Source of the DNA: a virus
IMG/VR virus record: IMGVR_UViG_3300025101_000019
Span: 109,351 to 173,350 of that record
Reading direction: 5' to 3' (one strand)
DNA: 64,000 nt
A program made the position numbers and the translations under genes. This document shows, in pieces, positions 11,025 through 31,278 of this stretch (positions are counted from its first letter, which is position 1; each line of letters begins with the position of its first letter). Under the pieces are notes generated by a model. It had not been told where the DNA came from. It ran no database searches and saw only the letters and a program-made list of their open reading frames with translations.

Positions 11025-11683
11025 TCCCATATGTAATTCCATTTTTGTTTATGCCACTTATTTTCTTTAATGTATTTTATAATATCATGGTGTACCATCT
11101 TTGTATCAAAATAGTGTGGCTTACAATATAAATGACCAAAGAGTGGAACTCCACTCGTTACTGAATCTGCCATATTCATAAAACTTCCTTCATAAACATG
11201 GATTTCTTTTGCGTTCTGTAATACTTTTCTGTAATCCAATATATGTCCTGCTCTACCATCAAGGTTTATCACAGGTAAATTTGGATTCATAAAATGTTTT
11301 CTGTTAATACCAATCATTGGACGATTCATATTATCAAGTGGTCTTTCATGTACGATTATGTAATCTTTACCATGCGTTTGAACCAACTCATTATATAATC
11401 TATCCTCTTCATTTACATCATAATCCCAAGTTAAATCTCGCCAACTACTATGTTCAACACCATCTTGAAATTTTAATCCTATATGTGGTGCGTGATATTC
11501 ATGAGGACAAGTACCTGTTGATAGGTTTGGTGTCTCATTGTATAGTTTTTCAAATAACCAATTTAGTCTTGGTACTTGTATGTATACTCTATCGTATTCT
11601 TTACAATACTTTTCTTTAATTACTGATGAGAACATTAACCCATCACCAACTCCACCTGCGTGTCCTATTGTTATTGCTTCCAT
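11021..11683 (-). CDS. Putative glycosyltransferase-like protein
   Basis: GGVGDGL N-terminal motif, YIIVH and AKEIH..EGSF segments typical of GT-B enzymes. Confidence 0.5.
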   Translation of the reverse strand: MEAITIGHAGGVGDGLMFSSVIKEKYCKEYDRVYIQVPRLNWLFEKLYNETPNLSTGTCPHEYHAPHIGLKFQDGVEHSSWRDLTWDYDVNEEDRLYNELVQTHGKDYIIVHERPLDNMNRPMIGINRKHFMNPNLPVINLDGRAGHILDYRKVLQNAKEIHVYEGSFMNMADSVTSGVPLFGHLYCKPHYFDTKMVHHDIIKYIKENKWHKQKWNYIWE

Positions 11684-13452: not shown

Positions 13453-13460
13453 AATGTGGG

Positions 13461-14084
13461 TTACACGAGGGTGTCATAATAGTCGTTTTGTTTTACTTGT
13501 TTTTCTATATCTTTGTGATGGAACAATGATAGTTCCTCAACCCAAGGTAAATTAGAAATCGTGTCATATCCATCGAGTTTCTCGTGTACCTTATTTATCC
13601 AACGAATGGAGTCTGATTTTTTATAAACTCTCCATTGTGGGTCTGGCCAATTTACTCGACCTTTATCATCAACCTTCCACCCCCACTTCTGAATGTACTC
13701 ATCGGTTAATCCATCTACCAAATTTACTCTTGGTACAAGAATTACATCAACACCATTCATTTCAAGGATTGCTGGAAGGTTTTCAATCAATTCATTATTA
13801 GGGATTTCATCTGCGTCAATCTGAAAGATGTAATCACCATTACATAAATCTGTTAATTTGTTTTTCCAATTTGCGAAGTGTCCATCGAACTCACCACTAT
13901 GCCATGAGTAAGTTGGATTTACTGATTTTGCTCTTAGAAATTCTTCTACTTTTGTATCACCATTCTTAGAATCGTATAGAACTACGATTTCATCTTCGTC
14001 TCTGATATTGTCTAATAAGTAAGGTATTAGTTTTTGAATTTCTACCAACTCATTACAAACTGTAATTGCGTAACTTATTTTCAT
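13461..14084 (-). CDS. Glycosyltransferase family 2
   Basis: ISYAITVCNE, IDADE, WPDPQWR, VHE. Confidence 0.85.
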   Translation of the reverse strand: MKISYAITVCNELVEIQKLIPYLLDNIRDEDEIVVLYDSKNGDTKVEEFLRAKSVNPTYSWHSGEFDGHFANWKNKLTDLCNGDYIFQIDADEIPNNELIENLPAILEMNGVDVILVPRVNLVDGLTDEYIQKWGWKVDDKGRVNWPDPQWRVYKKSDSIRWINKVHEKLDGYDTISNLPWVEELSLFHHKDIEKQVKQNDYYDTLV

Positions 14085-14093
14085 ACTCTATTT

Positions 14094-14609
14094 TTATAAT
14101 CCTACGGGTGGAGTATCTTGTGTGGTCTCCAAATCCGTATCGTCCTTTCGAACTTGTTCTTGTTGTCTTCGTTCTGACCTTGATGCTATTTTATCAAATA
14201 CACCATAGTCATAGTTATAAACTGTTATCTGTCCTACATTCTTTTCAACCAAAGTTCTATAACCATTTTGAAGGTCTTTGTTCTTTAGTTTAGAAGTGTA
14301 GAATTGTTTAGAGTTAACTTCTACTCTCAATTTACTCAAATCTAACTTTTTAATTTGAGGAGTAGTACTTGTTACCTCATTCAAATCCTCTGCAAGTTTA
14401 GTAAACTTGTCGGGTGCACAATCTTTTAAATCTAAACAATGAAAGTAATTCTTGAATTTAGGTTGTAAGATAAAGACAAACATATCTCTCTGAGTGTTGT
14501 CTCGTTTCTTATACCTAATCTTTGCAACCATACCTCTTTCTAATTTAGTCTTAGAAACTCTTGTAGGGTCTGTTAATTTACTTCTATGTCTACTTGTAAA
14601 ATCTGGCAT
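14094..14609 (-). CDS. Hypothetical protein (weak resemblance to DNA end-protector-like family)
   Basis: Coupled ORF, basic; no firm motif. Confidence 0.5.
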   Translation of the reverse strand: MPDFTSRHRSKLTDPTRVSKTKLERGMVAKIRYKKRDNTQRDMFVFILQPKFKNYFHCLDLKDCAPDKFTKLAEDLNEVTSTTPQIKKLDLSKLRVEVNSKQFYTSKLKNKDLQNGYRTLVEKNVGQITVYNYDYGVFDKIASRSERRQQEQVRKDDTDLETTQDTPPVGL

Positions 14610-15889
14610 TACTTTTTCTTCAATTTAGGTAGTTTCAATCCAACTTGAGTAGGACCTTCACCAACTTTATATTGTGTTAACAACTCACCTAACTTCTCTG
14701 TCATCTTATCTTGAGTAAAGTTAGTTTTTACATAATGTCTGTTTTTACGAGACATTACCACTGCTTTTTTGTAATTGTTATAAACTGTTTTTAGAACACC
14801 ACCTGCTTGTTGATGGTCAATCTTGAACCATTTTGCTTGTTCAAGAATCCATTTGTTTGCAGCTGATTTATGAACATTCTCTAATTTACCACCTACTAAA
14901 AAGTTATATTCTTTATGTAAGAAATCTACATGACCACTCCAAGCTGATGCTATAATTGGTTTACCACTAACACATGCCTCAAGTAATGGTCTACCGAATC
15001 CTTCACCATGAGTAAATGATACATGAGATTTTACTTTTGGATGATTGTATACTGAATTCATTTCTTCATCGGTCAAATCACCATCTAAAATATAAATATT
15101 AGGAAAGTTAGTTCCACCGATTCTATTTTTACATCTTTCGATTGTTTTTCTTAGTCGATGTATATTTGATATTGATGGTTGTCCATTATTAGTTTTTAGA
15201 ACCAACGCAGGTTTAGTTTTGTTTTTAAAAGATGTTCCCTTAAATGTATTCAAAAATACTTTTACTAATGAATATATGTTTTTTCTATCTTGACCATCTG
15301 CACCTGGCAACCAATGACCCACAAATAAGAAACAAAAGTTTTCTGGTATTTTGTCAAATACTTTTTTAACAGTATTGTTTATAGGTGCTTTATTGTCAAA
15401 AACCTTTGTGTCAAATCCTTCGAATAAAACTTCAACAGGTTTTTCTAATTTCAACTCACCCATCTTTTGTTTTGTCTGGTCATTGAGTTTATCATAAACT
15501 GCCGATAAAGTTCTTGCTGAATGTTCTGACGAAACCATAGTTAAGTCCATTCTATTACACCCATCAATAAATTCTGCAGGTGCATCTGATGTTTCGATAA
15601 CTGCTGATACACCAATATTAAAATGACCTACTGGTTGAAACTCTGATGGAATTGTCATTTGAATCCAAATATCTGGCTTCGTTTCCATTTTACGACTGAT
15701 TCTTGAAGTCAAATCTGAATCATCAGGTGTCAATGCGTTGATAGGAGTTTGTCCCCATCGTTGAGACAATATTCTAATGTCCCACTCATCACCCTTTAAC
15801 TGAATTAATGACCTTACGAAATCTCTACTTCTTGCACCATAACCACTTCTTGTAGCTATTGGACAACTAATTACACATACTTTTTTCAT
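14609..15889 (-). CDS. Glycosyltransferase family 4 (GT-B)
   Basis: SGYG, DRKN, GEGFGRPLLEA..SGKPII. Confidence 0.9.
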   Translation of the reverse strand: MKKVCVISCPIATRSGYGARSRDFVRSLIQLKGDEWDIRILSQRWGQTPINALTPDDSDLTSRISRKMETKPDIWIQMTIPSEFQPVGHFNIGVSAVIETSDAPAEFIDGCNRMDLTMVSSEHSARTLSAVYDKLNDQTKQKMGELKLEKPVEVLFEGFDTKVFDNKAPINNTVKKVFDKIPENFCFLFVGHWLPGADGQDRKNIYSLVKVFLNTFKGTSFKNKTKPALVLKTNNGQPSISNIHRLRKTIERCKNRIGGTNFPNIYILDGDLTDEEMNSVYNHPKVKSHVSFTHGEGFGRPLLEACVSGKPIIASAWSGHVDFLHKEYNFLVGGKLENVHKSAANKWILEQAKWFKIDHQQAGGVLKTVYNNYKKAVVMSRKNRHYVKTNFTQDKMTEKLGELLTQYKVGEGPTQVGLKLPKLKKK

Positions 15890-17298
15890 ATCTTGTAAAT
15901 ATCAAATCTTTGTCTTGGTTTCCAATTTTCAAAACAACCATCGATTGCTTCAATAAATTTCTTACCCATTGTTTCGGCTGCCATATCACCTGCACCCATA
16001 ATAAATTCATGTCCTTTCATACCTGCGGATGTACACTCATCCCTACCCTTACTATACCATTTATCTATTGCCGAACCGATGTCTTTATAAGAACATCTAT
16101 CATCAAATATATAAGGAGTAACGGGTGACCCTTGTAGTGAACGATTAGAAGGCCAGATTGGTTCAACCCATTCACCCCAAGTCAGTTCGTCTATAATTGG
16201 ATTATCTTTATCGTGTAAAGAACCAATCTCAACATAATCATCTCCAGTTAAGAACTCACCATTTCTTTTAAATCCACATTGGTCTTGTAATCCACCTGTA
16301 ACATTTACAATGATAGGAGTACCTGCTCGTAATGCTTCACAAGAACCCAAACCAAACCCTTCGTTTGATGCGACATTCAATACCACATCACACGAGTTAT
16401 AAAACATATTTAATCCTTCCGTACTTAGTTTTCCATCTGAAAACTTTACATCACAATTAGTTACATTCATTTTTACCAATTCAGGAAGGTCTGTACCATT
16501 ATCATCAATTGGATTTGTGTGCATGAACAATAGTACTTTTTTATTTGGATGTTTCTTTGCAAACTCTTCTACTCCTAAAACAACATCACCTGGAACTTTT
16601 CTACGAATGTTTCTGTTACACCATCCGAGAATAAAGTCATAATCATTAATACCACATTCTTCTTTGTATGCTATTAAATTAGTATCTGTATCTGATAGTG
16701 GTTTGAATAAGTTAGTTACTCCATGTGGAATATACTTGAAAGACCAATCTTCTCTATCTTCACCATACCAATCCATTACTCTTTTGTTAATACCATATGT
16801 TTGTTTGGATATACCTAACAACAAGTCACAACTTGCGTAAAATGGTGCATTCCAATGTGGGTCAGGTAATGAGTCCCATATATTGTAATACATGATTGGA
16901 CAAATCTGTCTAACCTCATTTTCCATATCATACAACCATCCCCAAAATCTTGGGTCAGTAAAGTGTAGTATTGCGTCTGGTTTTTCTACATTCAATAATT
17001 CTCTTAAAACTTCAGGATTACCATAACTTGTATGGGCGTATATCTTTACAGATGCATCTTCTATGCCTGTAAGTTTTCTAACATCATCATCTAAAATGAA
17101 TTGTTTACCATGGTCGGGATGTTTTAATGCAGCCCCCAATTGTACCCAATCATATTTGTGTACTGTTGATAGTACGATTTCTTTTGATTGTGTTGCAATC
17201 CCACTATGTAATCGTAAATCATCGGAAAGTAAAAGTATCTTTGGTTTCTTAACCTTATTCTTAGATACCTTCTTTAGTTTTGGTAGTTCTATGCTCAT
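15886..17298 (-). CDS. Glycosyltransferase family 4 (GT-B)
   Basis: IPHG, NRNIRRK, NEGFGLGSCEALRAGTPII. Confidence 0.9.
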   Translation of the reverse strand: MSIELPKLKKVSKNKVKKPKILLLSDDLRLHSGIATQSKEIVLSTVHKYDWVQLGAALKHPDHGKQFILDDDVRKLTGIEDASVKIYAHTSYGNPEVLRELLNVEKPDAILHFTDPRFWGWLYDMENEVRQICPIMYYNIWDSLPDPHWNAPFYASCDLLLGISKQTYGINKRVMDWYGEDREDWSFKYIPHGVTNLFKPLSDTDTNLIAYKEECGINDYDFILGWCNRNIRRKVPGDVVLGVEEFAKKHPNKKVLLFMHTNPIDDNGTDLPELVKMNVTNCDVKFSDGKLSTEGLNMFYNSCDVVLNVASNEGFGLGSCEALRAGTPIIVNVTGGLQDQCGFKRNGEFLTGDDYVEIGSLHDKDNPIIDELTWGEWVEPIWPSNRSLQGSPVTPYIFDDRCSYKDIGSAIDKWYSKGRDECTSAGMKGHEFIMGAGDMAAETMGKKFIEAIDGCFENWKPRQRFDIYKI

Positions 17299-18125: not shown

Positions 18126-18612
18126 TTTTATTAAGTGTGTTTCGTACCTTTTTCCAATACCTTTTAGTTTGTTTCTTTTGTAATCCCTTCGGACCACCAT
18201 TCCAACACCTTGCGATTTTCTCATATGAACTTTCTTTGTGATAATAATCTACAAATACATAAAACATTTCAATAGACTTTTCTCTATTCCATCTGTCATC
18301 AAGTGTATAAAATCTATTATCATCATTTTTGTTTAAAATTCGATTTACATCATTCACCATTATGGGTCTAATCTGTAATACTCCTGCAGCGTTTTCTCTT
18401 TTTGCATATGCAGTTGGGTTACCCTCTGATTCTACCCACACCATTGCCTCTACCAAATCATCTAAATTTCTTACAATGGGTTTTATTTCATTTTCTACTT
18501 TTTCAATTTTAATTTCCTTAATAGGAATCGTGTCAATTTGTTCTATTGGTTGTTCGTTGTTATTTACCGAAGAACATAGTAATCCGACTAATACTATTGA
18601 AAGATTTCTCAT
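18100..18612 (-). CDS. Lysozyme-like/transglycosylase with N-terminal signal or anchor
   Basis: VESEG, GVLQI, ARCWNGGP..T..YW motifs; hydrophobic N-terminus. Confidence 0.75.
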   Translation of the reverse strand: MRNLSIVLVGLLCSSVNNNEQPIEQIDTIPIKEIKIEKVENEIKPIVRNLDDLVEAMVWVESEGNPTAYAKRENAAGVLQIRPIMVNDVNRILNKNDDNRFYTLDDRWNREKSIEMFYVFVDYYHKESSYEKIARCWNGGPKGLQKKQTKRYWKKVRNTLNKNEGSSDRG

Positions 18613-19559
18613 ACAAATTTTATTCGTTCAACTTTGGGACATAATTCACTATCCTTAAAAGGACAATACTTACAACTTTTCTTGTTTTTACCCATCGTAG
18701 CGGGAAAGTCCCCTTCTGTGTTGTAAGAACCATCATCGTTAAAAGCGTTGGCGATAAACTCATCAAAACTTTTTACAATCTTATTTAGTGTTGGTTTTCC
18801 ATGTGATGGTACAAATTCTTGTACTCGTTTCTGAGCAAACATAGCTTCTTCCCATAACTTCCTCTTAACTATAAAGTACCTAACTTGTATCTTGTCTAAA
18901 GGATATCCATATTGTTCAGCGAAAAACTTCTTGTACAATACTAATTGAGCAGTTTTTGTTTTATCTGCTTTTTGCCATTTGTTCCAACCTTTTGTTGAGG
19001 TTTTGATATCCCAAATTTCTATTGTATTATCTGCAAGATTCTCAAATACTAAGTCGAGGAATCCCTTCATCATAATGTTTTCATTAGAATCGGATGCTGG
19101 ATAGTATATTGGTAACTCAACTCCAACTAATTTCATAGTCCTTGTTGAGAAGTATGATGCTCTATTCTTACGAAGGAAATCCAATATCTGAACACCATCA
19201 TCGTAGAATTCATTCATTTGGTCTTTTGTGGTGAACTTGACACCATAGACTGCCATCATCTTTTTGTACTCCTTAGCCATCTCTTCTAATAGTAGAGATT
19301 CTAAGTCCATTTCATTTGCTTTAACTGCCGACTCGTTGTACATTACTTGTAACCACGATTGAATTGTCTCGTGCATCGCAGTACCAAATACAAGATGAAT
19401 AGATGGGTCAAAGTCTTTGTGACCATCCATATAGGTCAATTTCCATTGTTTTGGACAATTAGCCCACATTGTATATTGAGAATACGAAACTTTAACATCA
19501 CCCTTCTGTTCTTTATGAACGGGGAAATTAAAGATGTTAGATACCATAGATTTTTTCAT
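18609..19559 (-). CDS. PD-(D/E)XK exonuclease (Cas4/RecB-like)
   Basis: SYSQ..CP, GTAMH, GFLDL..DIKT, QL.LY, CKYCPF..C; start moved downstream of promoter 19565. Confidence 0.85.
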   Translation of the reverse strand: MKKSMVSNIFNFPVHKEQKGDVKVSYSQYTMWANCPKQWKLTYMDGHKDFDPSIHLVFGTAMHETIQSWLQVMYNESAVKANEMDLESLLLEEMAKEYKKMMAVYGVKFTTKDQMNEFYDDGVQILDFLRKNRASYFSTRTMKLVGVELPIYYPASDSNENIMMKGFLDLVFENLADNTIEIWDIKTSTKGWNKWQKADKTKTAQLVLYKKFFAEQYGYPLDKIQVRYFIVKRKLWEEAMFAQKRVQEFVPSHGKPTLNKIVKSFDEFIANAFNDDGSYNTEGDFPATMGKNKKSCKYCPFKDSELCPKVERIKFV

Positions 19560-19564
19560 ACACT

Positions 19565-19596
19565 CTAATATACGACAATTTGACGAGAATGCCAAA
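19565..19596 (-). promoter_or_regulatory. Bacteroidota sigma70-type promoter (-33/-7)
   Basis: TTTG-N20-TATATTAG. Confidence 0.75.
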
Positions 19597-19624: not shown

Positions 19625-20035
19625 TTACTTAGCCCACTTCTTTCTTTGGACTATCTGAGAGATAATTCCGTATACACTCAAGTCTTCGTAAGTGTCTTGG
19701 ATATTCTCACCGACCTCATCAGGTTGCCCTAATACAACCAATTGCTTTAGTCTTTGGATTTTATCGTTTTTTCTAAACCATAACCCAACTAATGATAGTT
19801 TGATATCTTCGTCTGATTCTAAATTAGTTCCAACCGATATATTACCTGGCCCATAGTTTCTTTGTTTTTTACAAAATGTTTCATACATTTCATCTAAAAT
19901 CTTTTGGAACTCTGATGTAGTTTCTGGGTATAATCTTTCACAATATTCTACTGCGTTTTCTTCTACATTTCTTTTTTCAGTTCTCTCACCCTTCCACTCT
20001 ACTTTATTTTTTCTGTCTTTTATTACTTTAGCCAT
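19625..20035 (-). CDS. Nucleotide-modification-associated domain 1 (DUF1599-like)
   Basis: FCKKQRNYG, R.NDKIQRL, V.E.IQDT..DLSVY. Confidence 0.75.
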   Translation of the reverse strand: MAKVIKDRKNKVEWKGERTEKRNVEENAVEYCERLYPETTSEFQKILDEMYETFCKKQRNYGPGNISVGTNLESDEDIKLSLVGLWFRKNDKIQRLKQLVVLGQPDEVGENIQDTYEDLSVYGIISQIVQRKKWAK

Positions 20036-20466
20036 TTTTTTATTTCTTTTTTATCTAACCCATATTTTAACAATATTTCAGTAATATCGTCTTTACTAAG
20101 TATTTCAAGATAGTCTCTGACTTCTCTTTGTGATACTGAGTAGTACTTTGCAAGATACTCCAACACATTGGAATTATACTTGTCATCTTTTTTACCTTTT
20201 ATGTATTTGTCAAAAGACCTTTTCTTTGGTAAAAAATCAAGATACATTTTATAAACATCTCTTGGACTGAGTTGACCAATAGTAAACTTTTGTAGCTCGT
20301 TAACCAACTCCAATAATCCCATATTCATAGACAAAAACCTATTGACCATAAATGGTTCAAAGGTTTTTTTATCCATAACTGAAAGACTATCCCAAGAAGT
20401 TTTTGACTCCTTAAGTCCAGATAGATGTTGAAATAATGTCTTAGCCTTCTTGGTTGTCGCCATCAA
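20023..20466 (-). CDS. Clamp loader small subunit (gp62-like)
   Basis: PFMVNRFLS, LPKKRSF.KY, YYSVS.RE..YL. Confidence 0.8.
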   Translation of the reverse strand: MMATTKKAKTLFQHLSGLKESKTSWDSLSVMDKKTFEPFMVNRFLSMNMGLLELVNELQKFTIGQLSPRDVYKMYLDFLPKKRSFDKYIKGKKDDKYNSNVLEYLAKYYSVSQREVRDYLEILSKDDITEILLKYGLDKKEIKKWLK

Positions 20467-20734: not shown

Positions 20735-21655
20735 TTATTTTCCTAATGTCATTAAAATAGTTAATACCATAGCCATCACATTGATTTCTTTATCAACTAC
20801 CATGGAGTCTTTGTACTGACCCTCGGCTATATTTAAAATAGTGTGTCCGACTTTACCATTTGCATATGAATCTACTTCATCATAAAGTGCTCTATACAAT
20901 GGTGTAAAGTCTTTCACTTTTGAATCTGCAATAATTTGTCTGATTGTGTTGAACTTTGTTTTCATTTCACCACTCTCTTGTAAAACTTTTATTACATCTT
21001 CAGTATAGTTCGCCTGAATTGTAGAGGTTGTATCTATTTGTAATTCACCTTTGACAACTTGTCTTTGTGCTGAATTTAGAACTCTACGAATGTCAGGATA
21101 ACCACTATTGACCAAAATTGCCAAGTCTTCTTTTTCAAACTTAACTGATTCCTCGTTTAGTATATCAAACAATCTTTTTGCCACTTCTTTTTTAGAAGGT
21201 GGTGTTATTGCGAATGTTTGACAACGAGATTGAATCGGGTCAATAATTTTCTCTACATAGTTACAAGTTAAAATGAACCTTGTAGATTTACTAAAAGTTT
21301 CCATAAGATTACGAAGTGCTGCCTGTGCATTTGGTGTCAAATAATCAGCTTCGTCTAATATGATAACTTTCCACTTTCTGAAACCCATTGATGATGCGAA
21401 TCCACGAATCTTGTCACGAACTGCGTCAACTGAGTTTTCATCAGAAGCGTTAATATACATCAAATCACAATCAATCTGATTTGTGATTATCTTTGCGAGG
21501 GTAGTCTTACCAGTTCCTGCAACTCCATAGAGTAACAAGTGAGGTACATCCTCATTTTCAATGTATATTTTTACTTTGTCTAATATATGTTGATTACCAA
21601 CATATCCATCTAATGTATCGGGTCTGTATTTTTCAACCCATAGTGAATTGCTCAT
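20735..21655 (-). CDS. Clamp loader ATPase subunit (gp44/RFC-like)
   Basis: WVEKYRP, GVAGTGKT, DEAD, SRC. Confidence 0.95.
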   Translation of the reverse strand: MSNSLWVEKYRPDTLDGYVGNQHILDKVKIYIENEDVPHLLLYGVAGTGKTTLAKIITNQIDCDLMYINASDENSVDAVRDKIRGFASSMGFRKWKVIILDEADYLTPNAQAALRNLMETFSKSTRFILTCNYVEKIIDPIQSRCQTFAITPPSKKEVAKRLFDILNEESVKFEKEDLAILVNSGYPDIRRVLNSAQRQVVKGELQIDTTSTIQANYTEDVIKVLQESGEMKTKFNTIRQIIADSKVKDFTPLYRALYDEVDSYANGKVGHTILNIAEGQYKDSMVVDKEINVMAMVLTILMTLGK

Positions 21656-22842
21656 CTACCTACTTCTTTTAAATATGTTTCTTTTGCGTTTTCCCAAGTC
21701 ATTCCAATAATATCCATGTAATACAATGTATCTGGTTTCAACCTATTCTCATCATGTAACTTAGTGTATCTTCTAATAGCTTTCTTCTTCCACCATCTGA
21801 TTGTGTAATCATCACCTTCTTCGAACTTCTTTTTCATCTTCAACTGACTTTCATCAATCTCGTTTCTTAGAAACTCATTACCATTATCATACATCATTGC
21901 GAAGTATACACCTCGTTTAAATCCATGTTGATATTGTGTACTTTTGATTCCCAACTCTTTGAAAATCATAGACAATATTCTTTGTTTGATACCAGATACA
22001 GGTCCTTGGATACCTTCCTTTTGGGTTGTAACTCTTTTGTATTCATCAGCATTATGTTCTTTCATCCATTGATGCCAGATATCGTAAAATTGATTATCAG
22101 GTTTAGTAGAAACTTTACCTGTCGATTCACCTAATGTTTTGAAATGTGGTATTCCATTATATTGTGAATGGATTCCATAAAGAGAAGTTGTACCAACTGC
22201 GATTAGAGTTTGTCCATACTTTTCTTTCCACAAATCTCTGAATGTAGGTGAAGTGGTCAATGCCGAAACAAGTTTACCACCTAAGAAGTTATATCCCAAA
22301 GGTTGTGTTGCGATGATAGATGTACCAATTGTAGTATGATTCAACTTACCATCTTTAAACTTGTTTTCTTTATCCCACCCAATGTATTTATCACGAACAC
22401 CTAAAGATGTTACATCAGAACCAAGTGATATTACACCAAGTACTTTACCACTTTTTCGGTCTTTAGCAAATGCTTTTATATTACGACCTGGATTAGCAGT
22501 AAACTCCATTGATGAAATACACTTTCGGATGTCAGTCCACTTTGCAGTCCCTGCAGAATCTACGATTAAGTCTACATAAGGTTCTAACTCTTCAATTTCT
22601 TTAATAGTCTGTTCCTTGTTGTAGATGTCAGTTGGAGTCCAAATCATATCATAAGACTTTGCAAGACTTGGTTTTCTTGCCATAGACTTAGGTAGGTCTG
22701 AGTTCCACTCCTGCCACTTTTTATAAAGAGTTTGTTCCTCAACTGGCATACTTGATAGGTATTCCATATTGTCGATGAATCGTTTTCTCTCTACATCATA
22801 GTCAAAGACTGGTGCCGCTGGTTCTGTGTCCCAAAATTGCAT
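21652..22842 (-). CDS. DUF4338/Druantia DruA-like GNAT-related protein
   Basis: PGR, RD.YIGW, PLGYNFLGGKL, TTSLYG..SQYN, LGES.G motifs. Confidence 0.75.
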   Translation of the reverse strand: MQFWDTEPAAPVFDYDVERKRFIDNMEYLSSMPVEEQTLYKKWQEWNSDLPKSMARKPSLAKSYDMIWTPTDIYNKEQTIKEIEELEPYVDLIVDSAGTAKWTDIRKCISSMEFTANPGRNIKAFAKDRKSGKVLGVISLGSDVTSLGVRDKYIGWDKENKFKDGKLNHTTIGTSIIATQPLGYNFLGGKLVSALTTSPTFRDLWKEKYGQTLIAVGTTSLYGIHSQYNGIPHFKTLGESTGKVSTKPDNQFYDIWHQWMKEHNADEYKRVTTQKEGIQGPVSGIKQRILSMIFKELGIKSTQYQHGFKRGVYFAMMYDNGNEFLRNEIDESQLKMKKKFEEGDDYTIRWWKKKAIRRYTKLHDENRLKPDTLYYMDIIGMTWENAKETYLKEVGR

Positions 22843-23537
22843 TACTTAATCTCCACTAAATAATAGTTAGACTTAAATCCATCATTTTCAAATGAAACAT
22901 GAGCTAATCCATTTGGTGAAATCTTCAATGAAGATGATTTTGCACCCTTGTTAGCATTAAGGATTTCCTTTAAGTACTTAGCTGAGAATGATATTGGTTC
23001 TACATCACCATCACACTCACATTCTACATTGATTGAGATTCTGTTAGAGTTAATCTTTGAATAACCTAAGATTACTTCACCTTTGTTACTTTTACAACTA
23101 AATGTAAATGTATCTGAATCAGATAATGCACCTTTAGACTTTACGAATTTGTTTACGAAGTCATTGTCCATTTTGATAGTAGATGTAAAATCAGGTAATT
23201 GTTTCAAATCTGGAACAACAGGTATTACAGAAAGGTCAGCCAACATATAGTTTACTGAAGTACCTTTATCTGAGAACACAAGTGCTGCGTCACCTTCTTT
23301 TACACTAATATCTGAATCTAATACAGATAATAGTCCTTTTAATTGAGATGTAGTGTAAACACCATACTCTCCATTTGGAAAGTCTTTGTTATCACTACTT
23401 ACATTTCCTAATAGGGTCTTATCATCAGAAATGAATTTTACTGACAACCCTGCATCTGTTGAATCAATCTTTACTGATTCTACCTCACCACCCAAATTAT
23501 ATCGAGTAATGAACCCTTCAAACGAGCTTTTTTTCAT
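22842..23537 (-). CDS. Sliding clamp (gp45-like)
   Basis: Size, beta-rich two-domain pattern, position between PolB and clamp loader. Confidence 0.8.
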   Translation of the reverse strand: MKKSSFEGFITRYNLGGEVESVKIDSTDAGLSVKFISDDKTLLGNVSSDNKDFPNGEYGVYTTSQLKGLLSVLDSDISVKEGDAALVFSDKGTSVNYMLADLSVIPVVPDLKQLPDFTSTIKMDNDFVNKFVKSKGALSDSDTFTFSCKSNKGEVILGYSKINSNRISINVECECDGDVEPISFSAKYLKEILNANKGAKSSSLKISPNGLAHVSFENDGFKSNYYLVEIK

Positions 23538-23569
23538 AATTTACTTTTTACTATTGATTTATTATTATA

Positions 23570-23601
23570 CTAATATACGAAATTTATTTTTAAAATCCAA
23601 A
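23570..23601 (-). promoter_or_regulatory. Bacteroidota sigma70-type promoter for clamp operon
   Basis: TTTG-N20-TATATTAG. Confidence 0.75.
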
Positions 23602-24204
23602 CCATTTTAACATTTTTAATCGTCTTTTTTTGAAATGGTATATATAAATGTTTTTTGGTTTGGTCTTTTCATACTTTGCTTTACCATTTTCAAGTGCTTT
23701 TCTAATCTCTAACGCAAATGGTTTAAACTTACCATTATGTTTAGTTCTAATCGTTTTATCGTGATATCTAAATCCATTATACATAATAACACGACCTGGT
23801 TGAGTTTCACCTTTAAATTCAAAGTTTGTAGCTTTGTAAACCACACCCTCGTGTCCAAATGATTTATCTGCATATGATATAATCATATCTAAATCGGTGT
23901 TTCTCTGTAACCATCTAAGAGTCGAACCTATAAAGTAAGACTCTGTATTTTTAGGTGTATCATCTACACAAACTAATCTTTTTAATTCTAATATTTTATC
24001 AGGATTATTTGTATACTTTTGTTCTACTCCACCCATTCCAATCTTACCATATACAATTGCCCCAATCATATTGTTACCATCCATTAACTTAAAACAATAT
24101 GAAGTTTTTAATCCATTCATATTTTTAGAGTAATGGTATTTTTCAATAAAATCAACTACTTGACTTCTTGGACACTTTTCAACTATGTAATTTGTTACAC
24201 TCAT
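23590..24204 (-). CDS. Mom-family adenine-modification (GNAT) protein 1
   Basis: HYS, ELKRL, N.ES.FI, SYAD, HEGVVYKATNF. Confidence 0.8.
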   Translation of the reverse strand: MSVTNYIVEKCPRSQVVDFIEKYHYSKNMNGLKTSYCFKLMDGNNMIGAIVYGKIGMGGVEQKYTNNPDKILELKRLVCVDDTPKNTESYFIGSTLRWLQRNTDLDMIISYADKSFGHEGVVYKATNFEFKGETQPGRVIMYNGFRYHDKTIRTKHNGKFKPFALEIRKALENGKAKYEKTKPKNIYIYHFKKRRLKMLKWFGF

Positions 24205-26720
24205 TAAAATCCAAAAAATTCTGAAGCTTTATTTAGATTTGGATTTGGTTTCTCCCAATCCATAGCTTTATAGAAGTCATCAAGTTTATTTTCTAACTCC
24301 TTTTCCCAAATTTTATCGTAGTCAATATATTGTTCTACAAGATTTAAAATCTGAGGTGGGTCATTGTGACCTTTTAGTCCTGTCGTATCTAATCCGAGAG
24401 GATTCTTTTTCAAATATACCCACTTAATCTTATCACCATCTTTCATTGGTTCGTACTTGTATGGTACTTTATAGAAAGCAAGTAATTGATTATATGTTAT
24501 TGCTGCCTTAACATGCGCAGGTGACCCCTTTTGGAATTCACCTAATACTTGTGTCTTTGTTGTATACTTACTCATACCTTTGACCGCTGAGTTCTTTGCG
24601 ATATCAATGAATGGTCGGTCTTCCATACCTTTTTTGTAATCAAGAATCTTAGTATCAATCTCCTTTTTATCAACCGACCTTAGAATATCTAACAAAACAG
24701 TCTTCATAACTTCCTTAAAATATGTTGGGAATGAACTTCTTTTTACATCCAATCCTTTCACATCTAACTTATCACAATCAACTTCATTATCATTGATAAT
24801 CCATTGTGCGTATCTTTTCTTTGATACCCAAAACCCACCCTTTGCAATCGTTTCTTGTTTAATATCAAATTTATGTGTATCGATGTTAAATAACTTTTTT
24901 GCCATCGTATCATAAACTTTGTTGATATGACCTTCGACTTCTTTTGCTGCGGATATAATCGCAGGAATCATTTCTTCATCCGACTCTTCATTAAGTTGTG
25001 GATTCCTAGCTTTTACTAACGGCGCTGCTTGATAAAAAACAGAATCAGTATCGGTATAAACATTGTAGTCATCTTCTTTTCCTATTACTTTTGAATAATA
25101 TTGATTTGCAATCAACTCAGTTGTTTTAATTACAGTTTGACCTGTAATTGTAGTTGCTTCTGCGTTATCCACATCGTAGAATCTGAATGATGGTAATCCC
25201 AACACCCCATACAATGAGTTTAACATAATCTTTTGTACTAATTGTCGTTTACCATAAAACTTGTATTGTTCGTCATTACCTTCTTTACCATACTTTTTCA
25301 TCAAGTCTTTGTATTCAACTCGTTTGTCAAACCAAACACTTAGTATTTCAGGTATAACTCCAACTTTATCTGTTCTATATAAAACACCATTTGCAGCAAC
25401 AGAGTATCTATTCTTTTCAATAAACTTTAGAAATTTATCTTTAGGTAGTGGTGGAAACTCATTACCCTCATCATCCAAAATAGAGTAAGTATCAATCTTA
25501 CCTCTCATATGGTCTTCTGCTACATAATTCTTAAGTTTACCAATCTTAGTTTCAGGTGAGATATTGATACTCATAATGATTGATGGATATAGTGATGTTA
25601 AATCCAAATCATAAACCCATTTGTAAAGACCAGGTTTTGGTTCTTTTACATATGCGCCTGTAAACTTCCCTTCACCATCAGACCCATCTGCGTTTCGTTT
25701 CTTTCTCCATGGTTTATTGGGTGCTACCCTACCACTCCTTCTAAGGAATGTAAGAATAGCTCCCTCTAACCATTTAGATGAAAACAGAAAGTCTTCGTAG
25801 AACACATGACCTGTATGACATATTGCCCTTGCTAAGTCAATGAATTGTAATTTCTTATCCAAGTCAACTACCAACTCAACATCAACTAAGTTATACTCAA
25901 TAAACTTTTCAATATCATCTCTGAATAGTTGGTCTAAGTTTCCTTCATACTCAATCTTACCTCGACCTAACTCAATTGTTGCAACAGTATCTAATCGATA
26001 GTTGGGTAGTTCTGTAAAGTTATAACACTTATATAAAGCGAGATAATCTAATGCAGATACTCCTGCAATAATATATCTGTTTCTGTACTTGTTGTATGAT
26101 ACTTTACCAATTGGTGATAATTGATTTGCATATTGTTGACCGAATAGTAGTTTATATCTATTGTAAAGATATGTAACATCAAAGAAATCAATATTCCACC
26201 CCGTTACAATAGTTGGATTTATCTCTCTCCACTTGGACATAAACGCTGATAATAATCCCTCTTCAGTATCAAATGATTCTACCTTTGCACCTTTGATTGT
26301 TTTATCAATCTTTTCACCTTTGTTAACTACATAGACAAAATAGTCATTTGTAATTGAGTCATGTGCTGCGATTGAAGTAATTGCGTTACTTGCAGTTTCA
26401 ATATCAGGCAACCCACTATTCATTTCAACCTCAATATCAAATGTTAGAATTGTATGTCCTGTTGATAGTTCGTCTGAATCACCATACTCATCAATTAGAA
26501 ACCTCGTCATTTCATTAACATCAGACTCATATAATTTTAAGTCATCATCTTGTTTCCAATAATTTAATTTCTTAAGTCGTTCACCATGAATGGATTGATG
26601 TGCTCCATTACCATCTCTTACATAGGCGTACCTACGATACTTAGATGTAAAGTAACCTTTTTCATCATCCCAACAATGGATGATAGACTTTTCTTTTTCG
26701 AAGAATACATTTTGATACAT
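24204..26720 (-). CDS. Family B DNA polymerase (gp43-like)
   Basis: FDIE exonuclease, DLTSLYPS, KIMLNSLYG, YTDTDS, KKRY. Confidence 0.97.
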   Translation of the reverse strand: MYQNVFFEKEKSIIHCWDDEKGYFTSKYRRYAYVRDGNGAHQSIHGERLKKLNYWKQDDDLKLYESDVNEMTRFLIDEYGDSDELSTGHTILTFDIEVEMNSGLPDIETASNAITSIAAHDSITNDYFVYVVNKGEKIDKTIKGAKVESFDTEEGLLSAFMSKWREINPTIVTGWNIDFFDVTYLYNRYKLLFGQQYANQLSPIGKVSYNKYRNRYIIAGVSALDYLALYKCYNFTELPNYRLDTVATIELGRGKIEYEGNLDQLFRDDIEKFIEYNLVDVELVVDLDKKLQFIDLARAICHTGHVFYEDFLFSSKWLEGAILTFLRRSGRVAPNKPWRKKRNADGSDGEGKFTGAYVKEPKPGLYKWVYDLDLTSLYPSIIMSINISPETKIGKLKNYVAEDHMRGKIDTYSILDDEGNEFPPLPKDKFLKFIEKNRYSVAANGVLYRTDKVGVIPEILSVWFDKRVEYKDLMKKYGKEGNDEQYKFYGKRQLVQKIMLNSLYGVLGLPSFRFYDVDNAEATTITGQTVIKTTELIANQYYSKVIGKEDDYNVYTDTDSVFYQAAPLVKARNPQLNEESDEEMIPAIISAAKEVEGHINKVYDTMAKKLFNIDTHKFDIKQETIAKGGFWVSKKRYAQWIINDNEVDCDKLDVKGLDVKRSSFPTYFKEVMKTVLLDILRSVDKKEIDTKILDYKKGMEDRPFIDIAKNSAVKGMSKYTTKTQVLGEFQKGSPAHVKAAITYNQLLAFYKVPYKYEPMKDGDKIKWVYLKKNPLGLDTTGLKGHNDPPQILNLVEQYIDYDKIWEKELENKLDDFYKAMDWEKPNPNLNKASEFFGF

Positions 26721-26724
26721 ATGT

Positions 26725-26756
26725 TAAATATACGAAATTATTTTGACTTTACCAAA
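26725..26756 (-). promoter_or_regulatory. Bacteroidota sigma70-type promoter for PolB
   Basis: TTTG-N20-TATATTTA. Confidence 0.72.
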
Positions 26757-27537
26757 AGTTAACTGCGTTTTCTGGCGTATAAGTTTCATGTTTTTCAATA
26801 GGTGGTAAAAACTCCTCAGGGTCTTTTGGATACGGACTTGTTTTATGTTTTAACATCTTACTAAGTTTTCGTTTCTCAGATTTGTTTTGACCTAAGATTT
26901 GAATGTACCTATGTTTAGGTGCTTCTTTCTTTCGCCAAAAACATGATTTGTTTTGTTTACCTATTTCTGTTTTTAAGTGTTCTACATTATGTGAACCCCA
27001 TTTTGAGAATACAGTTCTCGAATGAATCCAATTGTAAGGATTTTCAGTTAGTGATACTGAATAGTTTGGCATTAGTTGTATATCACGACAATCTTGATAT
27101 AACCAATTAGTTGCTTGGTAAATGCCACCGAGGTGTAATTGTTCAGGGTCTGCGTAACTCAATAACATCTTAATATTTGGTGCATTTTCTCTCATCCATT
27201 TAAAAGACTGACCCATTGAGTATGATTCTACATTTGAACCATATCCATCGTGTATAAACAATCTTGTCAATTCTAAACACTCATCTTTTTCTAAACCATC
27301 AATTACAGACTTAATCGCTGAACGACCTACGGGATATCCATATACCAAACAACCAATTAGTTTTTCACTACCAAAAAACTCACCATCACCTTTGTAATAC
27401 ACACCAAGTGCGTATCTACACATTGTCCATGCGTGAGAGTAGTGATACTTCACTATCATATGTTTTGCAACACTTTTATTGATTTCTCTGATTGAAACCT
27501 TTGAGGCGTCTACATAATGTTTATTAGGTTCTTTCAA
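26749..27537 (-). CDS. Mom-family adenine-modification (GNAT) protein 2
   Basis: HYS, ELTRL, NVES, SYADP, HLGGIYQATNW, KHRY. Confidence 0.8.
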   Translation of the reverse strand: MKEPNKHYVDASKVSIREINKSVAKHMIVKYHYSHAWTMCRYALGVYYKGDGEFFGSEKLIGCLVYGYPVGRSAIKSVIDGLEKDECLELTRLFIHDGYGSNVESYSMGQSFKWMRENAPNIKMLLSYADPEQLHLGGIYQATNWLYQDCRDIQLMPNYSVSLTENPYNWIHSRTVFSKWGSHNVEHLKTEIGKQNKSCFWRKKEAPKHRYIQILGQNKSEKRKLSKMLKHKTSPYPKDPEEFLPPIEKHETYTPENAVNFW

Positions 27538-28276
27538 TTGGTTCTAATTTTTTTATTTCTTCTTCAAATAACTCACCCTGTTTAGGATATGGTAGTGAAG
27601 GATATTTTAAACTCTTTAATATACGACTTTTTTTTGACTTATCCAAAATATAAATGTATCGATGCTTTCTTGGTTCTTTTTTAATCCAAAAAGTTTTACC
27701 AATTACCTTTTGTATTTTGGTGGGGTTATTAGTTCCATAATATGGAAATATTGTTCTACCATGTTGCCACTCCCCATTTTCTTCAAACTTAAATAACCAA
27801 CTATCATTTGGTCTTATTCTATTTCCTTGGTATACCCAATTAGTTGACTGATATACAGTTCCTAAATGACCTGCTTTGGGGTCTGAGTATGAAATTAATC
27901 CTTTGATGTGTTTTGCGTAGGTTCTTAACCACTTAAATGTTTGACCTACAAACCAACTTTCAATGTTACATCCGTATCCATCAAATACAAATAATCTTGT
28001 AAGTTCTAATACTTCTTTTCTATCCAATAACTCTGATATTGATTGCCCAGAGTGTCTTCCGATTGGGTCACCATATGTTGCAACACCGATTAACTTATCT
28101 GTCGATGAAAAGAAAGAGTGTGAGTTATCCTCAATATACAATCCCAAACAATAACTAACCTTTGTCCATATACCACTATAATGGTTTTTTATGATAATGT
28201 CCTTTGCTACTGATTTTGAGATAGGTCTTACGGATAACTTTGAAATATCTGTATACTCTTTCCCTTTAATTTTCAT
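27524..28276 (-). CDS. Mom-family adenine-modification (GNAT) protein 3
   Basis: HYS, ELTRL, NIESWF, SYSDP, HLGTVYQSTNW, KHRY. Confidence 0.8.
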   Translation of the reverse strand: MKIKGKEYTDISKLSVRPISKSVAKDIIIKNHYSGIWTKVSYCLGLYIEDNSHSFFSSTDKLIGVATYGDPIGRHSGQSISELLDRKEVLELTRLFVFDGYGCNIESWFVGQTFKWLRTYAKHIKGLISYSDPKAGHLGTVYQSTNWVYQGNRIRPNDSWLFKFEENGEWQHGRTIFPYYGTNNPTKIQKVIGKTFWIKKEPRKHRYIYILDKSKKSRILKSLKYPSLPYPKQGELFEEEIKKLEPIERT

Positions 28277-28476
28277 TGATACTCGTTAAACTCACCAAAT
28301 AGTAAGTGTTTCCAAGTTTCACCTCTAACAATTTTTCTTATGTTAGCAGGTGATACTCCATTGTTTCTTGCCAATACTCTAATATTACGATGACCCACTT
28401 GCCATAATTTACGAATAGACCTTACTTGTCTTTCCGTTAATTTATGTTGTGGATGTAATTCACCTCTTAATGCCAT
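28273..28476 (-). CDS. Stand-alone HTH DNA-binding protein (resembles C-terminal domain of HNH endonucleases)
   Basis: GELHPQHKLT..V..IR..LA..GVS..I..I.RG.TWKH; ATG 28476 preferred because GTG 28491 overlaps the promoter. Confidence 0.7.
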   Translation of the reverse strand: MALRGELHPQHKLTERQVRSIRKLWQVGHRNIRVLARNNGVSPANIRKIVRGETWKHLLFGEFNEYQ

Positions 28477-28490
28477 TCTAAATCTTTTCA

Positions 28491-28522
28491 CTAATATACG
28501 AAATTTATTTTAATTTTCCAAA
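28491..28522 (-). promoter_or_regulatory. Bacteroidota sigma70-type promoter for HTH-Mom-Mom operon
   Basis: TTTG-N20-TATATTAG. Confidence 0.75.
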
Positions 28523-29067
28523 ATTATATCACCACTTTTTAATCCACTTGGTTCGATATCCCATAGATTAATTGCTATTGCGTGTCTTGTACCACGAGTA
28601 ACTTTAGTAACTCTATGTGGATGGGCGCCTGCAGGGAATATAACCAGTCTATTATACTTTGGTTCTAATCTTTCAGGTTCACCATCTTGACCATGTGGAT
28701 ATATTTCAAGATAACCACCATCAATATCATTTTCCCAAGGATAGTAAACTGTTCCAATTATTGGTGTAATAATTTCGTTTGTTCTCCAGTAATGTGCTTC
28801 GTCTTTGTCAAAATGGAATGGTAGTTCATCCTTTTCTTCAAACTCCGAGTAAATGCCTGTCCAATATTCGAATCCTGTAACACTTAATGGTTCGTATGGT
28901 GAGTTCTCACCCCAAATGTATTCTATCAACCTTTTTTTAAGTGTATCGGTAGGTGAATTCCACCAACCATCCCACCACATATAACTTTTATCATTAAAAA
29001 ATGTGGTGTCATTCTTTAAATCATTCAATAGACTTTCGTCTTTTATAAAATCATCTATTACTATCAT
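28510..29067 (-). CDS. 2OG-Fe(II) oxygenase
   Basis: HFDKD, GGYL, NRLVIF, H.V..V..G.R. Confidence 0.85.
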   Translation of the reverse strand: MIVIDDFIKDESLLNDLKNDTTFFNDKSYMWWDGWWNSPTDTLKKRLIEYIWGENSPYEPLSVTGFEYWTGIYSEFEEKDELPFHFDKDEAHYWRTNEIITPIIGTVYYPWENDIDGGYLEIYPHGQDGEPERLEPKYNRLVIFPAGAHPHRVTKVTRGTRHAIAINLWDIEPSGLKSGDIILEN

Positions 29068-30155
29068 AAACTTTCTACTTTCTTAAGTGCGGATGCGATT
29101 ACTTGATGCATATCATAGTATTTGTACTCTGCCAACCTACCACCAAATATTACTTTATCTTGACCATCCGCAAGTTTTTTATATTTGTTATACATCTCAT
29201 TGTTAATTTTATCATTTACAGGATAATATGGTTCTACCCCTCTTTCGTAAAGTTGTGGATATTCCCAACTAACATAAGTTCCTTTTTGATTCTGATTATC
29301 AAAATGTTTATGTTCTATGGTTCGAGTATAAGGTGTTTCTGAATCCGTATAGTTCATTAATGCACATCCTTGATAATTATCTTTTGATTTATACATTTTA
29401 TGCATCCAATGTAAAGACTTGTATTCTAAGTCACCATATTTGTAATCGAAGTACTTATCAATCGGACCTGTATAAATTACTTTATTACCCATATCATCCC
29501 AAAAGTCTTTTTTATCAAAATAATCCGTTTCTGTAAATACTTCAATACCTTCTAATAGTCTTTCAAATATCTGAGTGTATCCACCGATTGGTATTCCTTG
29601 ATATTTGTCATTGAAGTAATTGTTATTATATGTGTATCTTACAGGCAATCTTTTGATAATTGACTTTGGTAACAACTTAGCTGGCTTCATCCATTGTTTT
29701 TGGGTGTAACCTTTTATTAACTTTTCGTAAATGTCGTCACCAACAAGTGCTTTCGCCTGTTCTTCTAAATTAGTTGGAGTATCCTTAAATCTTTGTGATT
29801 CAATCCTTTGTTTTGCTCCTTCGGGTGTCGTTACACCCCACATTTTGTTGAATGTATACATATTGAAAGGTAACGGATATATTTCACCCTTATAGTTTGC
29901 AACTATATTCAATTGGAATTGATGAAAATCTACAAACTGATTTATCCAATGCCAAACCTTATCATTATTTGTATGAAATATATGTGGTCCATATTTGTGT
30001 ACATGAATACCTTCTATTTCTTCGGTATAACAATTACCACCGATGTGGTCTCGTTTTTCTAATACAAGAACCTTTTTACCTTTTTCTCTAAGTTCGTATG
30101 CACATACTGCACCAAAGAATCCAGAACCTACAATAATGTAATCGTATTTAGCCAT
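29064..30155 (-). CDS. glf: UDP-galactopyranose mutase
   Basis: GSGFFG, HIGGN, YGPHIFHT, YYP, GRLAEYKYYDMHQ. Confidence 0.95.
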   Translation of the reverse strand: MAKYDYIIVGSGFFGAVCAYELREKGKKVLVLEKRDHIGGNCYTEEIEGIHVHKYGPHIFHTNNDKVWHWINQFVDFHQFQLNIVANYKGEIYPLPFNMYTFNKMWGVTTPEGAKQRIESQRFKDTPTNLEEQAKALVGDDIYEKLIKGYTQKQWMKPAKLLPKSIIKRLPVRYTYNNNYFNDKYQGIPIGGYTQIFERLLEGIEVFTETDYFDKKDFWDDMGNKVIYTGPIDKYFDYKYGDLEYKSLHWMHKMYKSKDNYQGCALMNYTDSETPYTRTIEHKHFDNQNQKGTYVSWEYPQLYERGVEPYYPVNDKINNEMYNKYKKLADGQDKVIFGGRLAEYKYYDMHQVIASALKKVESL

Positions 30156-31278
30156 TCAATCCTCTTAATGCTTTAGTATGAAGTTCTTTTGGATATTCAC
30201 TTGTATCGTAATATGCGGTATCCTCTATTATAAACTGAAGATTTGGGAATGGGTTTTTTCTGTTTAAATCTACTAACATTTTAGTACATTGTAATGCTTT
30301 ACTAAAGTGTTTTCGTTCCAAGTATATTTCTGCCAATCTGGCGTATGATTCATTTCTGTCGTGACAAAACTCAACACTTTTATTCAACCACTCTATTTGT
30401 TTATCAATTTGACCCATCCACCTGTATGCAGCTGCTATTCCACAACAACACCAATAAGAAAATTCATCTTTTGTAGATGATACTAAATTATTCTCTTTGT
30501 ACTCTGGATTTACTTTATAAAGATATTGTTCAAAATAAAATATACATCGTCTTGCAAACTCTTTCCTATGGTCTTCACCAAATGGAAAATTATCACCAAG
30601 TGTATCGTGATAGGATTTTGCTATGTAGAATAAATGATAATTATCCTCTAAGACTTTATTGTTTGGGACTACATCAAGTTCTAAGTTTAATGCATCTTTT
30701 AAAAACTTCATTGGTTGTAACCAAGTTTGTCCATCGTTAGTTAGAATGTGTCTAAACTTTTTGTCTAATGGTACTCGTTGAAATCCTTCACCAACATCAT
30801 CTCTATCTAAATAAATTGTCTCATGCGCTTTTTCTGGGTAGAATGCCCATGGTTCTTTTGCATTCCATAACCAAGTTCTAAAATACTTTACACCTGGCCC
30901 TTGACATGGTACATTGAAACTCTGAATGGATGTATCGTTAAATACAGACCAATCAAAATCATCATCCACTTGTAATTGTTCGTCTGCATCAACTCTAAGT
31001 ATCCAATCACACCCATGGTCTGCACTTAATGCAGTTTTTATACAATGGTCTCTGTTTATTCCATGACCCTTCCACCAATCTAATTGATATAAGAAACCAG
31101 GTATTCCTTTAGCTTCAAAGAAGTTCTTAATTATATCTTGTGTTCCATCAGTTGAACCATTATCTTGAATAACCCAATAGTCGATATACTCGTAAACACT
31201 CTCTAACATCCTTGTGATGACATGAGCTTCGTTATTTACCATTGTGTTAAAACAAAACTTTGCAGTAGTGTTTTTCAT
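30148..31278 (-). CDS. GT2 glycosyltransferase with TPR-like C-terminus
   Basis: MVNNE, DNGSTDGT, DADE, AHE; helical repeat C-terminus. Confidence 0.82.
   Translation of the reverse strand: MKNTTAKFCFNTMVNNEAHVITRMLESVYEYIDYWVIQDNGSTDGTQDIIKNFFEAKGIPGFLYQLDWWKGHGINRDHCIKTALSADHGCDWILRVDADEQLQVDDDFDWSVFNDTSIQSFNVPCQGPGVKYFRTWLWNAKEPWAFYPEKAHETIYLDRDDVGEGFQRVPLDKKFRHILTNDGQTWLQPMKFLKDALNLELDVVPNNKVLEDNYHLFYIAKSYHDTLGDNFPFGEDHRKEFARRCIFYFEQYLYKVNPEYKENNLVSSTKDEFSYWCCCGIAAAYRWMGQIDKQIEWLNKSVEFCHDRNESYARLAEIYLERKHFSKALQCTKMLVDLNRKNPFPNLQFIIEDTAYYDTSEYPKELHTKALRGLNG

Follow-up and report, generated by a model that had tools for sequence, protein, structure and literature searches.

Why should several putative DNA-modifying enzymes be encoded among the DNA polymerase, sliding clamp and clamp-loader genes of one virus, and would they act there as a set? 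The question is raised by the virus record IMGVR_UViG_3300025101_000019 of IMG/VR, a 173,350-bp genome sequence that is 95% complete and has a GC content of 34%. We analysed its final 64 kb (positions 109,351 to 173,350 of the record, 64,000 nucleotides, called the window here). Almost every gene is encoded on the minus strand, and as read from the translations the virus has a T4-type replication module and myovirus tail genes. The locus in question codes for three proteins of the Mom family (MomA, MomB and MomC) and for a DUF4338 protein similar to DruA (the DruA-like protein). The gene order given in the initial annotation (helix-turn-helix (HTH) protein, Mom, Mom, PolB, Mom, clamp, DruA-like, loader) was confirmed, with all genes on the minus strand:

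28273-28491, minus strand: small HTH protein, encoded first in the unit; a core gene that is also found in Mom-free lineages
27524-28276, minus strand: MomA, Mom-family GNAT of 250 aa (PF25680, 153 bits)
26749-27537, minus strand: MomB, Mom-family GNAT of 262 aa with a TTG start (PF25680, 161 bits)
24204-26720, minus strand: PolB, family B DNA polymerase with the C-terminus F-F-x-F
23590-24204, minus strand: MomC, divergent Mom-family GNAT of 204 aa (PF25680, 119 bits)
22842-23537, minus strand: sliding clamp, gp45-like (PHROG 223, E 3e-8)
21652-22842, minus strand: DUF4338/DruA-like protein with a predicted GNAT fold, 396 aa, in the interval between clamp and loader (PF14236, 67 bits)
20735-21655, minus strand: clamp loader large subunit, gp44-like (PHROG 168, E 6e-83)

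The answer that we put forward, and that we hold to be an even call, is that these genes form a modular anti-restriction DNA-modification set carried by the PolB-clamp-loader module in three slots of exchangeable content; in this set the Moms would be catalytically intact, the DruA-like protein would be a fourth GNAT, and the enzymes would be docked on the clamp through short Phe/Trp tags at their ends. MomA, MomB and MomC are the sole three members of PF25680 across the genome (curated cut-off 27.1 bits), and the Moms match the crystal chain of phage Mu Mom (8bv8) with an E-value of 1.5e-23. MomA and MomB are 47% identical and MomC is 30-32% identical to either, and the five shared motifs that had been noticed at the outset (HYS, EL.RL, N.ES, SY[AS]D and H.G..Y..TN[WF]) are all present in the alignment. 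It was shown that Mu Mom transfers glycine from Gly-tRNA to the N6 of adenine in double-stranded DNA to give 6-NcmdA, that it acts after replication, in an SAS context and as a dimer, and that H58, Y59, R111, S124, D149 and Y159 are residues required for activity, with R151 reported as essential and W48 as a dimer contact (PMC13219725). Like Mu Mom, the three paralogues have the GNAT fold with the Mom insertion region, and all six activity residues are kept in each of them. Among 28 MomA, 32 MomB and 8 MomC sequences, H58, Y59, R111, S124 and Y159 are invariant wherever aligned and D149 is also conserved, except in 3 MomB sequences; W181 is retained in MomA and MomB and is an R in MomC. Judged by the residues kept, the three Moms appear to be separate, catalytically intact Mom-family enzymes, and none of them looks like a dead subunit. 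The ratio of nonsynonymous to synonymous substitution rates is 0.04-0.11 for MomA, MomB, MomC and the DruA-like gene (0.04-0.08 for MomA), similar to that of PolB, and purifying selection acts on all four. We consider it probable that the Moms modify DNA. Each of them would most likely take an amino acid (by default glycine) from a charged host tRNA and attach it to the N6 of adenine in double-stranded DNA, and each would do so in a limited sequence context of its own; we infer donor, adduct and motif from the fold and the residues that were observed.

The initial annotation had set these genes against the single Mom of Mu, a contrast that stands but is less new than implied, as five Moms were reported in phage vB_PaeM_PA5oct, which like the present virus has several Moms in one large genome, there interpreted as protection from more than one restriction system (PMC7824862). 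Mom chemistry and the presence of several Moms in one phage are therefore already known. The loci also differ in setting, since the Mu gene is late and tightly repressed and the genes described here lie among replication genes and code for tags of a clamp-binding type. As a separate observation, tRNA-Gly(GCC), the donor type of Mu Mom, is encoded by the Mom-bearing relatives G007 and G009 (L214-L231) and is absent both from the studied genome, which has tRNAs for Glu, Ala, Leu, Met and Arg, and from the Mom-free G001.

The DruA-like protein had been counted with the Moms as one of four Mom/GNAT-related candidates, of which the GNAT part held for all four and the Mom part for three. It scores 67 bits against a PF14236 cut-off of 27 bits and matches the PADLOC DruA model with an E-value of 7e-22. 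A structure model made from an alignment of 98 sequences reached a predicted local distance difference test (pLDDT) score of 94.9; an initial model made from 18 close sequences had a pLDDT of 54 and was discarded. When the model was compared with 48,161 solved chains the top match was Mu Mom (8bv8; Z 10.2, root mean square deviation 3.5, 164 aligned residues, 12% identity), followed by GNATs with Z 7.6-8.7, the next best having 8.7. A Foldseek search of the PDB gave nothing at E 0.001 and only weak acetyltransferase matches. Neither by sequence nor by profile did the protein resemble the Moms: there was no PF25680 match, and a profile comparison with MomA gave an hhalign probability of 0.7%. 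The modelled fold thus places the DruA-like protein in the GNAT superfamily and outside the Mom family, to which the fold is the sole link.

The case for a role of the locus in DNA modification comes from its relatives, whose loci were gathered with MomB, the DruA-like protein, the clamp and MomC as queries. The linkage to replication genes, which had been noted at the outset for this genome, is conserved in dozens of them. Three variable slots were found, between HTH and PolB, between PolB and clamp, and between clamp and loader. Presence was counted in 37 distinct loci that span the module and placed on a clamp and loader tree, a quick version of which the root is unreliable. MomB and the DruA-like gene occur together in 31 of the 37 loci and both are missing in the other 6, so that the two are concordant in all 37, and the 6 loci sit at three separate places on the tree. 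A Mom-free genome that is 94% complete was found to have neither gene at any other position, and the positive controls of the search worked. In a more distant phage the two co-occur 76 kb apart, and they have been retained across lineages whose clamps are only 67% identical. In Mom-free lineages the DruA slot holds a TET-associated glycosyltransferase (TAGT) or a GT-B-like protein, the Mom slot an ABC-ATPase-GNAT or a GT-B-like protein, and the MomC slot an S-adenosylmethionine-dependent methyltransferase. As DNA-modifying activity is known or predicted for both TAGT and ABC-GNAT (PMC7824862), this exchange is the strongest indirect pointer to a role of the slots in DNA modification. A GT-B-like gene also lies immediately before PolB in most Mom lineages; none was found in the studied genome. 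No report of this slot architecture was found in the literature searched. Most relatives have, next to PolB or the clamp, members of the unnamed GT-B-like family, which are 372-496 aa long and most of which have a Phe/Trp tag (examples are L008:10839-11972, L024:5613-6731, L087:5368-6711, L113:9707-11197 and L127:4339-5748); they are candidate DNA glycosyltransferases.

The set does not appear to be fixed. Four contigs with 98-99% identity to the studied genome lack MomC, and the gene is bounded by a direct repeat at which the MomC-less relatives join exactly:

24204-24215, minus strand: copy 1 of the 12-bp direct repeat TTTGGATTTTAA, at the end of PolB
23590-23601, minus strand: copy 2 of the same repeat

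MomC is patchy on the tree and its distant relatives are found in unrelated phage contexts. MomA has been lost while MomB stays in at least two lineages (the L130/L140/L145 clade and L089; fragments only). Since MomA is dispensable and MomC is a presence/absence cassette, the genes are better seen as a modular set than as a fixed four-enzyme machine; of the multi-enzyme system that had been proposed, the three intact Moms and the GNAT-fold protein, in slots shared with DNA-modifying enzymes, stood, and the fixed composition did not. The HTH gene and the Nmad1-like gene downstream, which had been drawn into the system, were rejected as parts of it, as both persist in lineages without any Mom. 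A tract of about 1.2 kb in the last third of PolB (window 24100-25350) is 91-96% identical to relatives that are about 100% identical on both sides of it, and from the sequence this tract seems to be a patch of recombination that stops at the MomC junction.

The proposed tie to replication was made through the tags. PolB ends in F-F-x-F, MomB in h-x-F-W and MomC in W-F-G, and the DruA-like protein begins with M-x-F-W-D, a tag that is present in 69 of 69 slot copies. A terminal Phe/Trp pair was found in 4 of the 7 genes from HTH to DruA-like, compared with 9 of 202 genome-wide, and in related glycosyltransferase families the tag is N-terminal in some and C-terminal in others. MomA has an internal loop with a conserved H-[SQ]-F-F. 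In T4 and RB69 the C-terminus of the gp43 polymerase is a clamp-binding peptide that is reused by other proteins (PMC6212786), which makes the clamp the natural partner for the tags. Like those gp45-binding peptides (the gp43 C-terminus and the ligase loop LDFLF), the tags are short aromatic peptides found at the polymerase C-terminus and reused by proteins that would act on DNA; they differ in being h-x-F-W and x-F-F and not LDFLF, in having predicted DNA-modifying clients, and in that clamp binding is here a prediction. We consider it fairly probable that the tags bind the clamp. The Phe/Trp pair on PolB, MomB and the DruA-like protein, and probably MomC and MomA, would then most likely dock these proteins on the phage clamp, as the conservation of the tag suggests, and docking would allow new phage DNA to be marked behind the fork while host DNA is spared. 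The initial annotation had suggested replication coupling and a prediction of complexes with the clamp; the former gained the indirect evidence of the shared tags, and the latter a weak score. The clamp trimer modelled with MomB 229-262 scored 0.33 and the best of 3 controls 0.00; the runs shared at least 76% of contacts, with a partner pLDDT of at least 53 and a clamp pLDDT of about 90 as a trimer, and no interface was given. Of the solved complexes, 58 of 80 reached the mark used for such scores, as did 2 of 110 mismatches; with scores of 0.60 or below these were only 7 of the 80 and both mismatches. No report of clamp-docked phage base-modifying enzymes was found in the literature searched.

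A number of observations weigh against the proposed set, and they concern each of its parts. In the Moms, the position of Mu R151 is occupied by K in MomA, E in MomB and S in MomC (K, E/G/F and S/T across the three families), and W48 is replaced by S, N and P, respectively. These replacements weaken the case for the same reaction and motif as in Mu and leave Mom family membership unaffected; together with position 181 they may leave room for different motifs or donors. The chemistry of Mom has been worked out for a single enzyme and only lately; three intact paralogues in which R151 is altered are candidates for new motifs or amino-acid adducts. In the genome, GATC and ACGT do not occur at all in the whole 173 kb, and CTAG, CACTG, ACAGC, ACATGT, CTATAG and GGTACC are near-absent. 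The SAS-containing words CACTG and ACAGC have observed-to-expected ratios of 0.07 and 0.05, so that the Mu context is strongly avoided, with no sign of relief. In 22 of 22 related sequences checked GATC is missing or almost missing, and it is avoided equally in Mom and Mom-free lineages. From these words any modification or protection would be context-limited. Such a limit agrees with several specificities being needed, but a positive sign of protection was not seen; the avoidance of CACTG and ACAGC is compatible with another specificity, although other explanations exist. In a search for k-mers that would point to protection, CCGG and AGCT were less avoided where Moms are present, a difference not used as support, as the ranges overlap and only three Mom-free lineages, with unknown hosts, were compared. 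In the DruA-like protein, equivalents of the Mom HY, R111, ES and D149 are missing (mapped by eye) and a fold gives no proof of function. The protein has conserved motifs of its own instead (QP.G...GGKL, TTSL[YF]G and the invariant K190 and Y228), suggesting that its chemistry is probably different from that of Mom.

The remaining points concern the tags, and they bear on the alternative that the enzymes modify DNA after replication without the clamp, as Mu Mom does, and that their place among replication genes reflects shared promoters, timing and recombination hot spots, the tags binding something else or nothing. Among slot occupants of relatives, a terminal Phe/Trp pair was found in 10 of 16 enzyme families and in 0 of 24 others (Fisher p 9e-6), a comparison in which the split was made by our own labels, the motif was chosen post hoc and five glycosyltransferase families are related. 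The tag is absent from the termini of MomA, from one GT-B family and from TAGT. Furthermore, a promoter-like element, TTTGG-N~18-GTATATT[AT]G, recurs about ten times in the genome, on the minus strand at window positions 19596, 23601, 26756, 28522, 38788, 43525 and 44132 and elsewhere, and such elements flank every slot:

28491-28522, minus strand: promoter-like element before HTH-MomA-MomB, function putative
26725-26756, minus strand: promoter-like element before PolB, with an upstream box that overlaps the MomB F-W codons in this lineage
23570-23601, minus strand: promoter-like element before clamp-DruA-loader, with an upstream box that shares bases with the end of MomC and with copy 2 of the 12-bp repeat

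The upstream box of the element commonly forms the last codons of the preceding gene. The box TTTGG encodes F-G or F-W, and it extends into the ends of MomB and MomC, and of PolB in MomC-less relatives; three of the four tags in the studied genome overlap the promoter box or its repeat, and in MomC the two are inseparable. MomC also travels with the recombination tract. The clamp score may moreover reflect memory of T4/RB69 clamp-peptide structures. Mu Mom acts on naked double-stranded DNA independently of the replisome and without a clamp (PMC13219725). The T4 alpha- and beta-glucosyltransferases, like the enzymes proposed here, are more than one post-synthetic DNA-modifying activity in a phage with a T4-type replisome, for which coupling to replication was once proposed; their chemistry is different, the claim that alpha-glucosyltransferase binds gp45 was not reproduced, and the glucosyltransferases were obtained without gp45 co-purification (10.64898/2025.12.06.692756). 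On the other side, the tag is found on unrelated families, at either end and in the last residues of PolB, and it is kept where promoter overlap is absent: it is kept in 23 distinct MomB tails, 19 of them without overlap, PolB without overlap has F-F-S-F with TTC codons, and the N-termini of the DruA-like and GT-B proteins are also free of overlap, while the all-TTT-TGG spelling in MomB fits the 25:1 bias of the genome. The idea that the tags are by-products of the promoter box was accordingly rejected for PolB, MomB, the DruA-like protein and GT-B. Modification after replication without the clamp is in our judgement an unlikely reading, though one with appreciable weight. With the T4 claim not reproduced, the tags offer a clean mutational test of whether base modification in phage is tied to the clamp.

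Of the four enzymes, the DruA-like protein is the one whose part in the set can most readily be questioned. The Moms might modify DNA while the DruA-like protein has a separate function, either in the acylation of replisome or host proteins or as a decoy of a host Druantia defence. Most GNATs at Z 8-8.7 use amines of proteins or small molecules, the protein matches PADLOC DruA, and DUF4338, which has been called a GNAT domain, was also read as a possible protein-targeting co-effector (PMC10853773). Phages of Pelagibacter and Synechococcus that are in culture have relatives of the gene, located close to clamp-loader genes or between them, and in the two cultured phages checked, Mosig and S-SCSM2R, it is present and Mom is absent. 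The family match (PF14236) is shared with DruA of type I Druantia; here the gene is phage-borne and solo, belongs to a longer viral subfamily shared with pelagiphages and cyanophages, and has clamp and loader genes as neighbours. In type I Druantia a DruE helicase and the other dru genes share one operon with DruA; the DruE-type helicase domain (PF09369, DUF1998/MZB) was not found in the 95%-complete genome, in a search whose control was positive in 8 of 14, which argues that the gene is not a Druantia system. Against a separate function stand the exchange of its slot with DNA glycosyltransferases, Mom as its nearest fold, its concordance with MomB across the loci, and the fusion of DUF4338 homologues to uracil-DNA-glycosylase-superfamily, ParB N-terminal or DUF3102 domains (P0269, P0248, P0255 and P0259). 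We regard a separate function as rather improbable, and give slightly better than even chances to the DruA-like protein acting on DNA.

In the proposed set the DruA-like protein would most likely acylate DNA or the Mom adduct, by another chemistry and alongside MomB, a role to which its modelled fold and the observed co-occurrence point. A narrower form, in which MomB loads a tRNA amino acid on adenine and the DUF4338 protein adds a second group in a two-step acylation that yields an undescribed base, with both proteins tethered to the clamp by their Phe-Trp tags, is a still less probable possibility. If true, it would be the first biochemical function for DUF4338/DruA and the first clear replisome-coupled base hypermodification in a phage, and a DNA-acylating DUF4338 would bear on the mechanism of Druantia. 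No biochemistry for DUF4338/DruA and no phage role for DUF4338 were found in the literature searched. Given its Mom-like fold, its exchange with DNA glycosyltransferases and its occurrence in pelagiphages and cyanophages that are in culture, a DNA-acylating role of the protein could be examined directly on virion DNA. Short second DUF4338 proteins of 192-239 aa also occur in the slots (L057:4063-4782, L064:8678-9256 and L077:740-1318); they have a YHSY motif like the HY of Mom, with one weak Mom PHROG match (E 1e-4), and from their sequences it is possible that they bridge the Mom and DUF4338 families.

It was also proposed initially that the adjacent MomA and MomB might form one heteromeric enzyme. 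The two genes overlap, their products are the most similar pair described above, Mu Mom is dimeric and its W48 contact is lost here, and MomA was found without MomB in none of the 37 loci. Nevertheless, MomB stands alone in the lineages that have lost MomA, both proteins have the full catalytic set, and in L047 a 208-aa gene lies between them. An obligate heteromer is thus not supported, and a single MomA-MomB enzyme is very improbable. That the genes are selfish or decaying passengers of no benefit to the phage, as the patchy, repeat-bounded MomC and the homing-endonuclease-like genes found in the same slots of relatives might suggest, is scarcely credible in view of purifying selection as strong as that on PolB, the lack of a fused nuclease domain and the persistence of MomB and the DruA-like gene across divergent lineages.

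Downstream of the loader gene two further genes were found, the second being the DUF1599-like gene that the initial annotation had listed:

20023-20466, minus strand: clamp loader small subunit, gp62-like (30% identity to the Mel-JY01 clamp loader A subunit)
19625-20035, minus strand: DUF1599/Nmad1-like gene (PHROG 1485, E 2e-12; Pfam, E 9e-4, 20 bits)

The Pfam score of the latter is below the 25-bit cut-off, and the clamp itself was recognised by PHROG 223 only and not by Pfam. Mel-JY01 is the nearest cultured record by clamp (37.5%); it has PolB, clamp and loader side by side and a DUF1599/Nmad1-like gene, and both Mom and DruA-like genes are absent from it. A sigma-70 scan of the sequence gave fewer sites than in shuffles and by itself adds nothing. 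As to the host, the repeated promoter-like element resembles the TAnnTTTG promoter type of Bacteroidetes (PMC10309648); a host among the Bacteroidota is suggested by inference only.

A Cas4-like PD-(D/E)XK nuclease gene (window 18609-19595; PADLOC E 2e-5) has a promoter-like element of its own and is conserved in all relatives. A long run of glycosyltransferase and nucleotide-sugar genes, including epimerases and a UDP-galactopyranose mutase-like gene, was read from translations at window 2214-17298 and 29064-31278, for which protein or surface glycosylation is more likely than that of DNA. Finally, PolB lies in two reading frames in L064 and L067, with a 275-aa gene between the halves in L064, a probable intron with a homing endonuclease.

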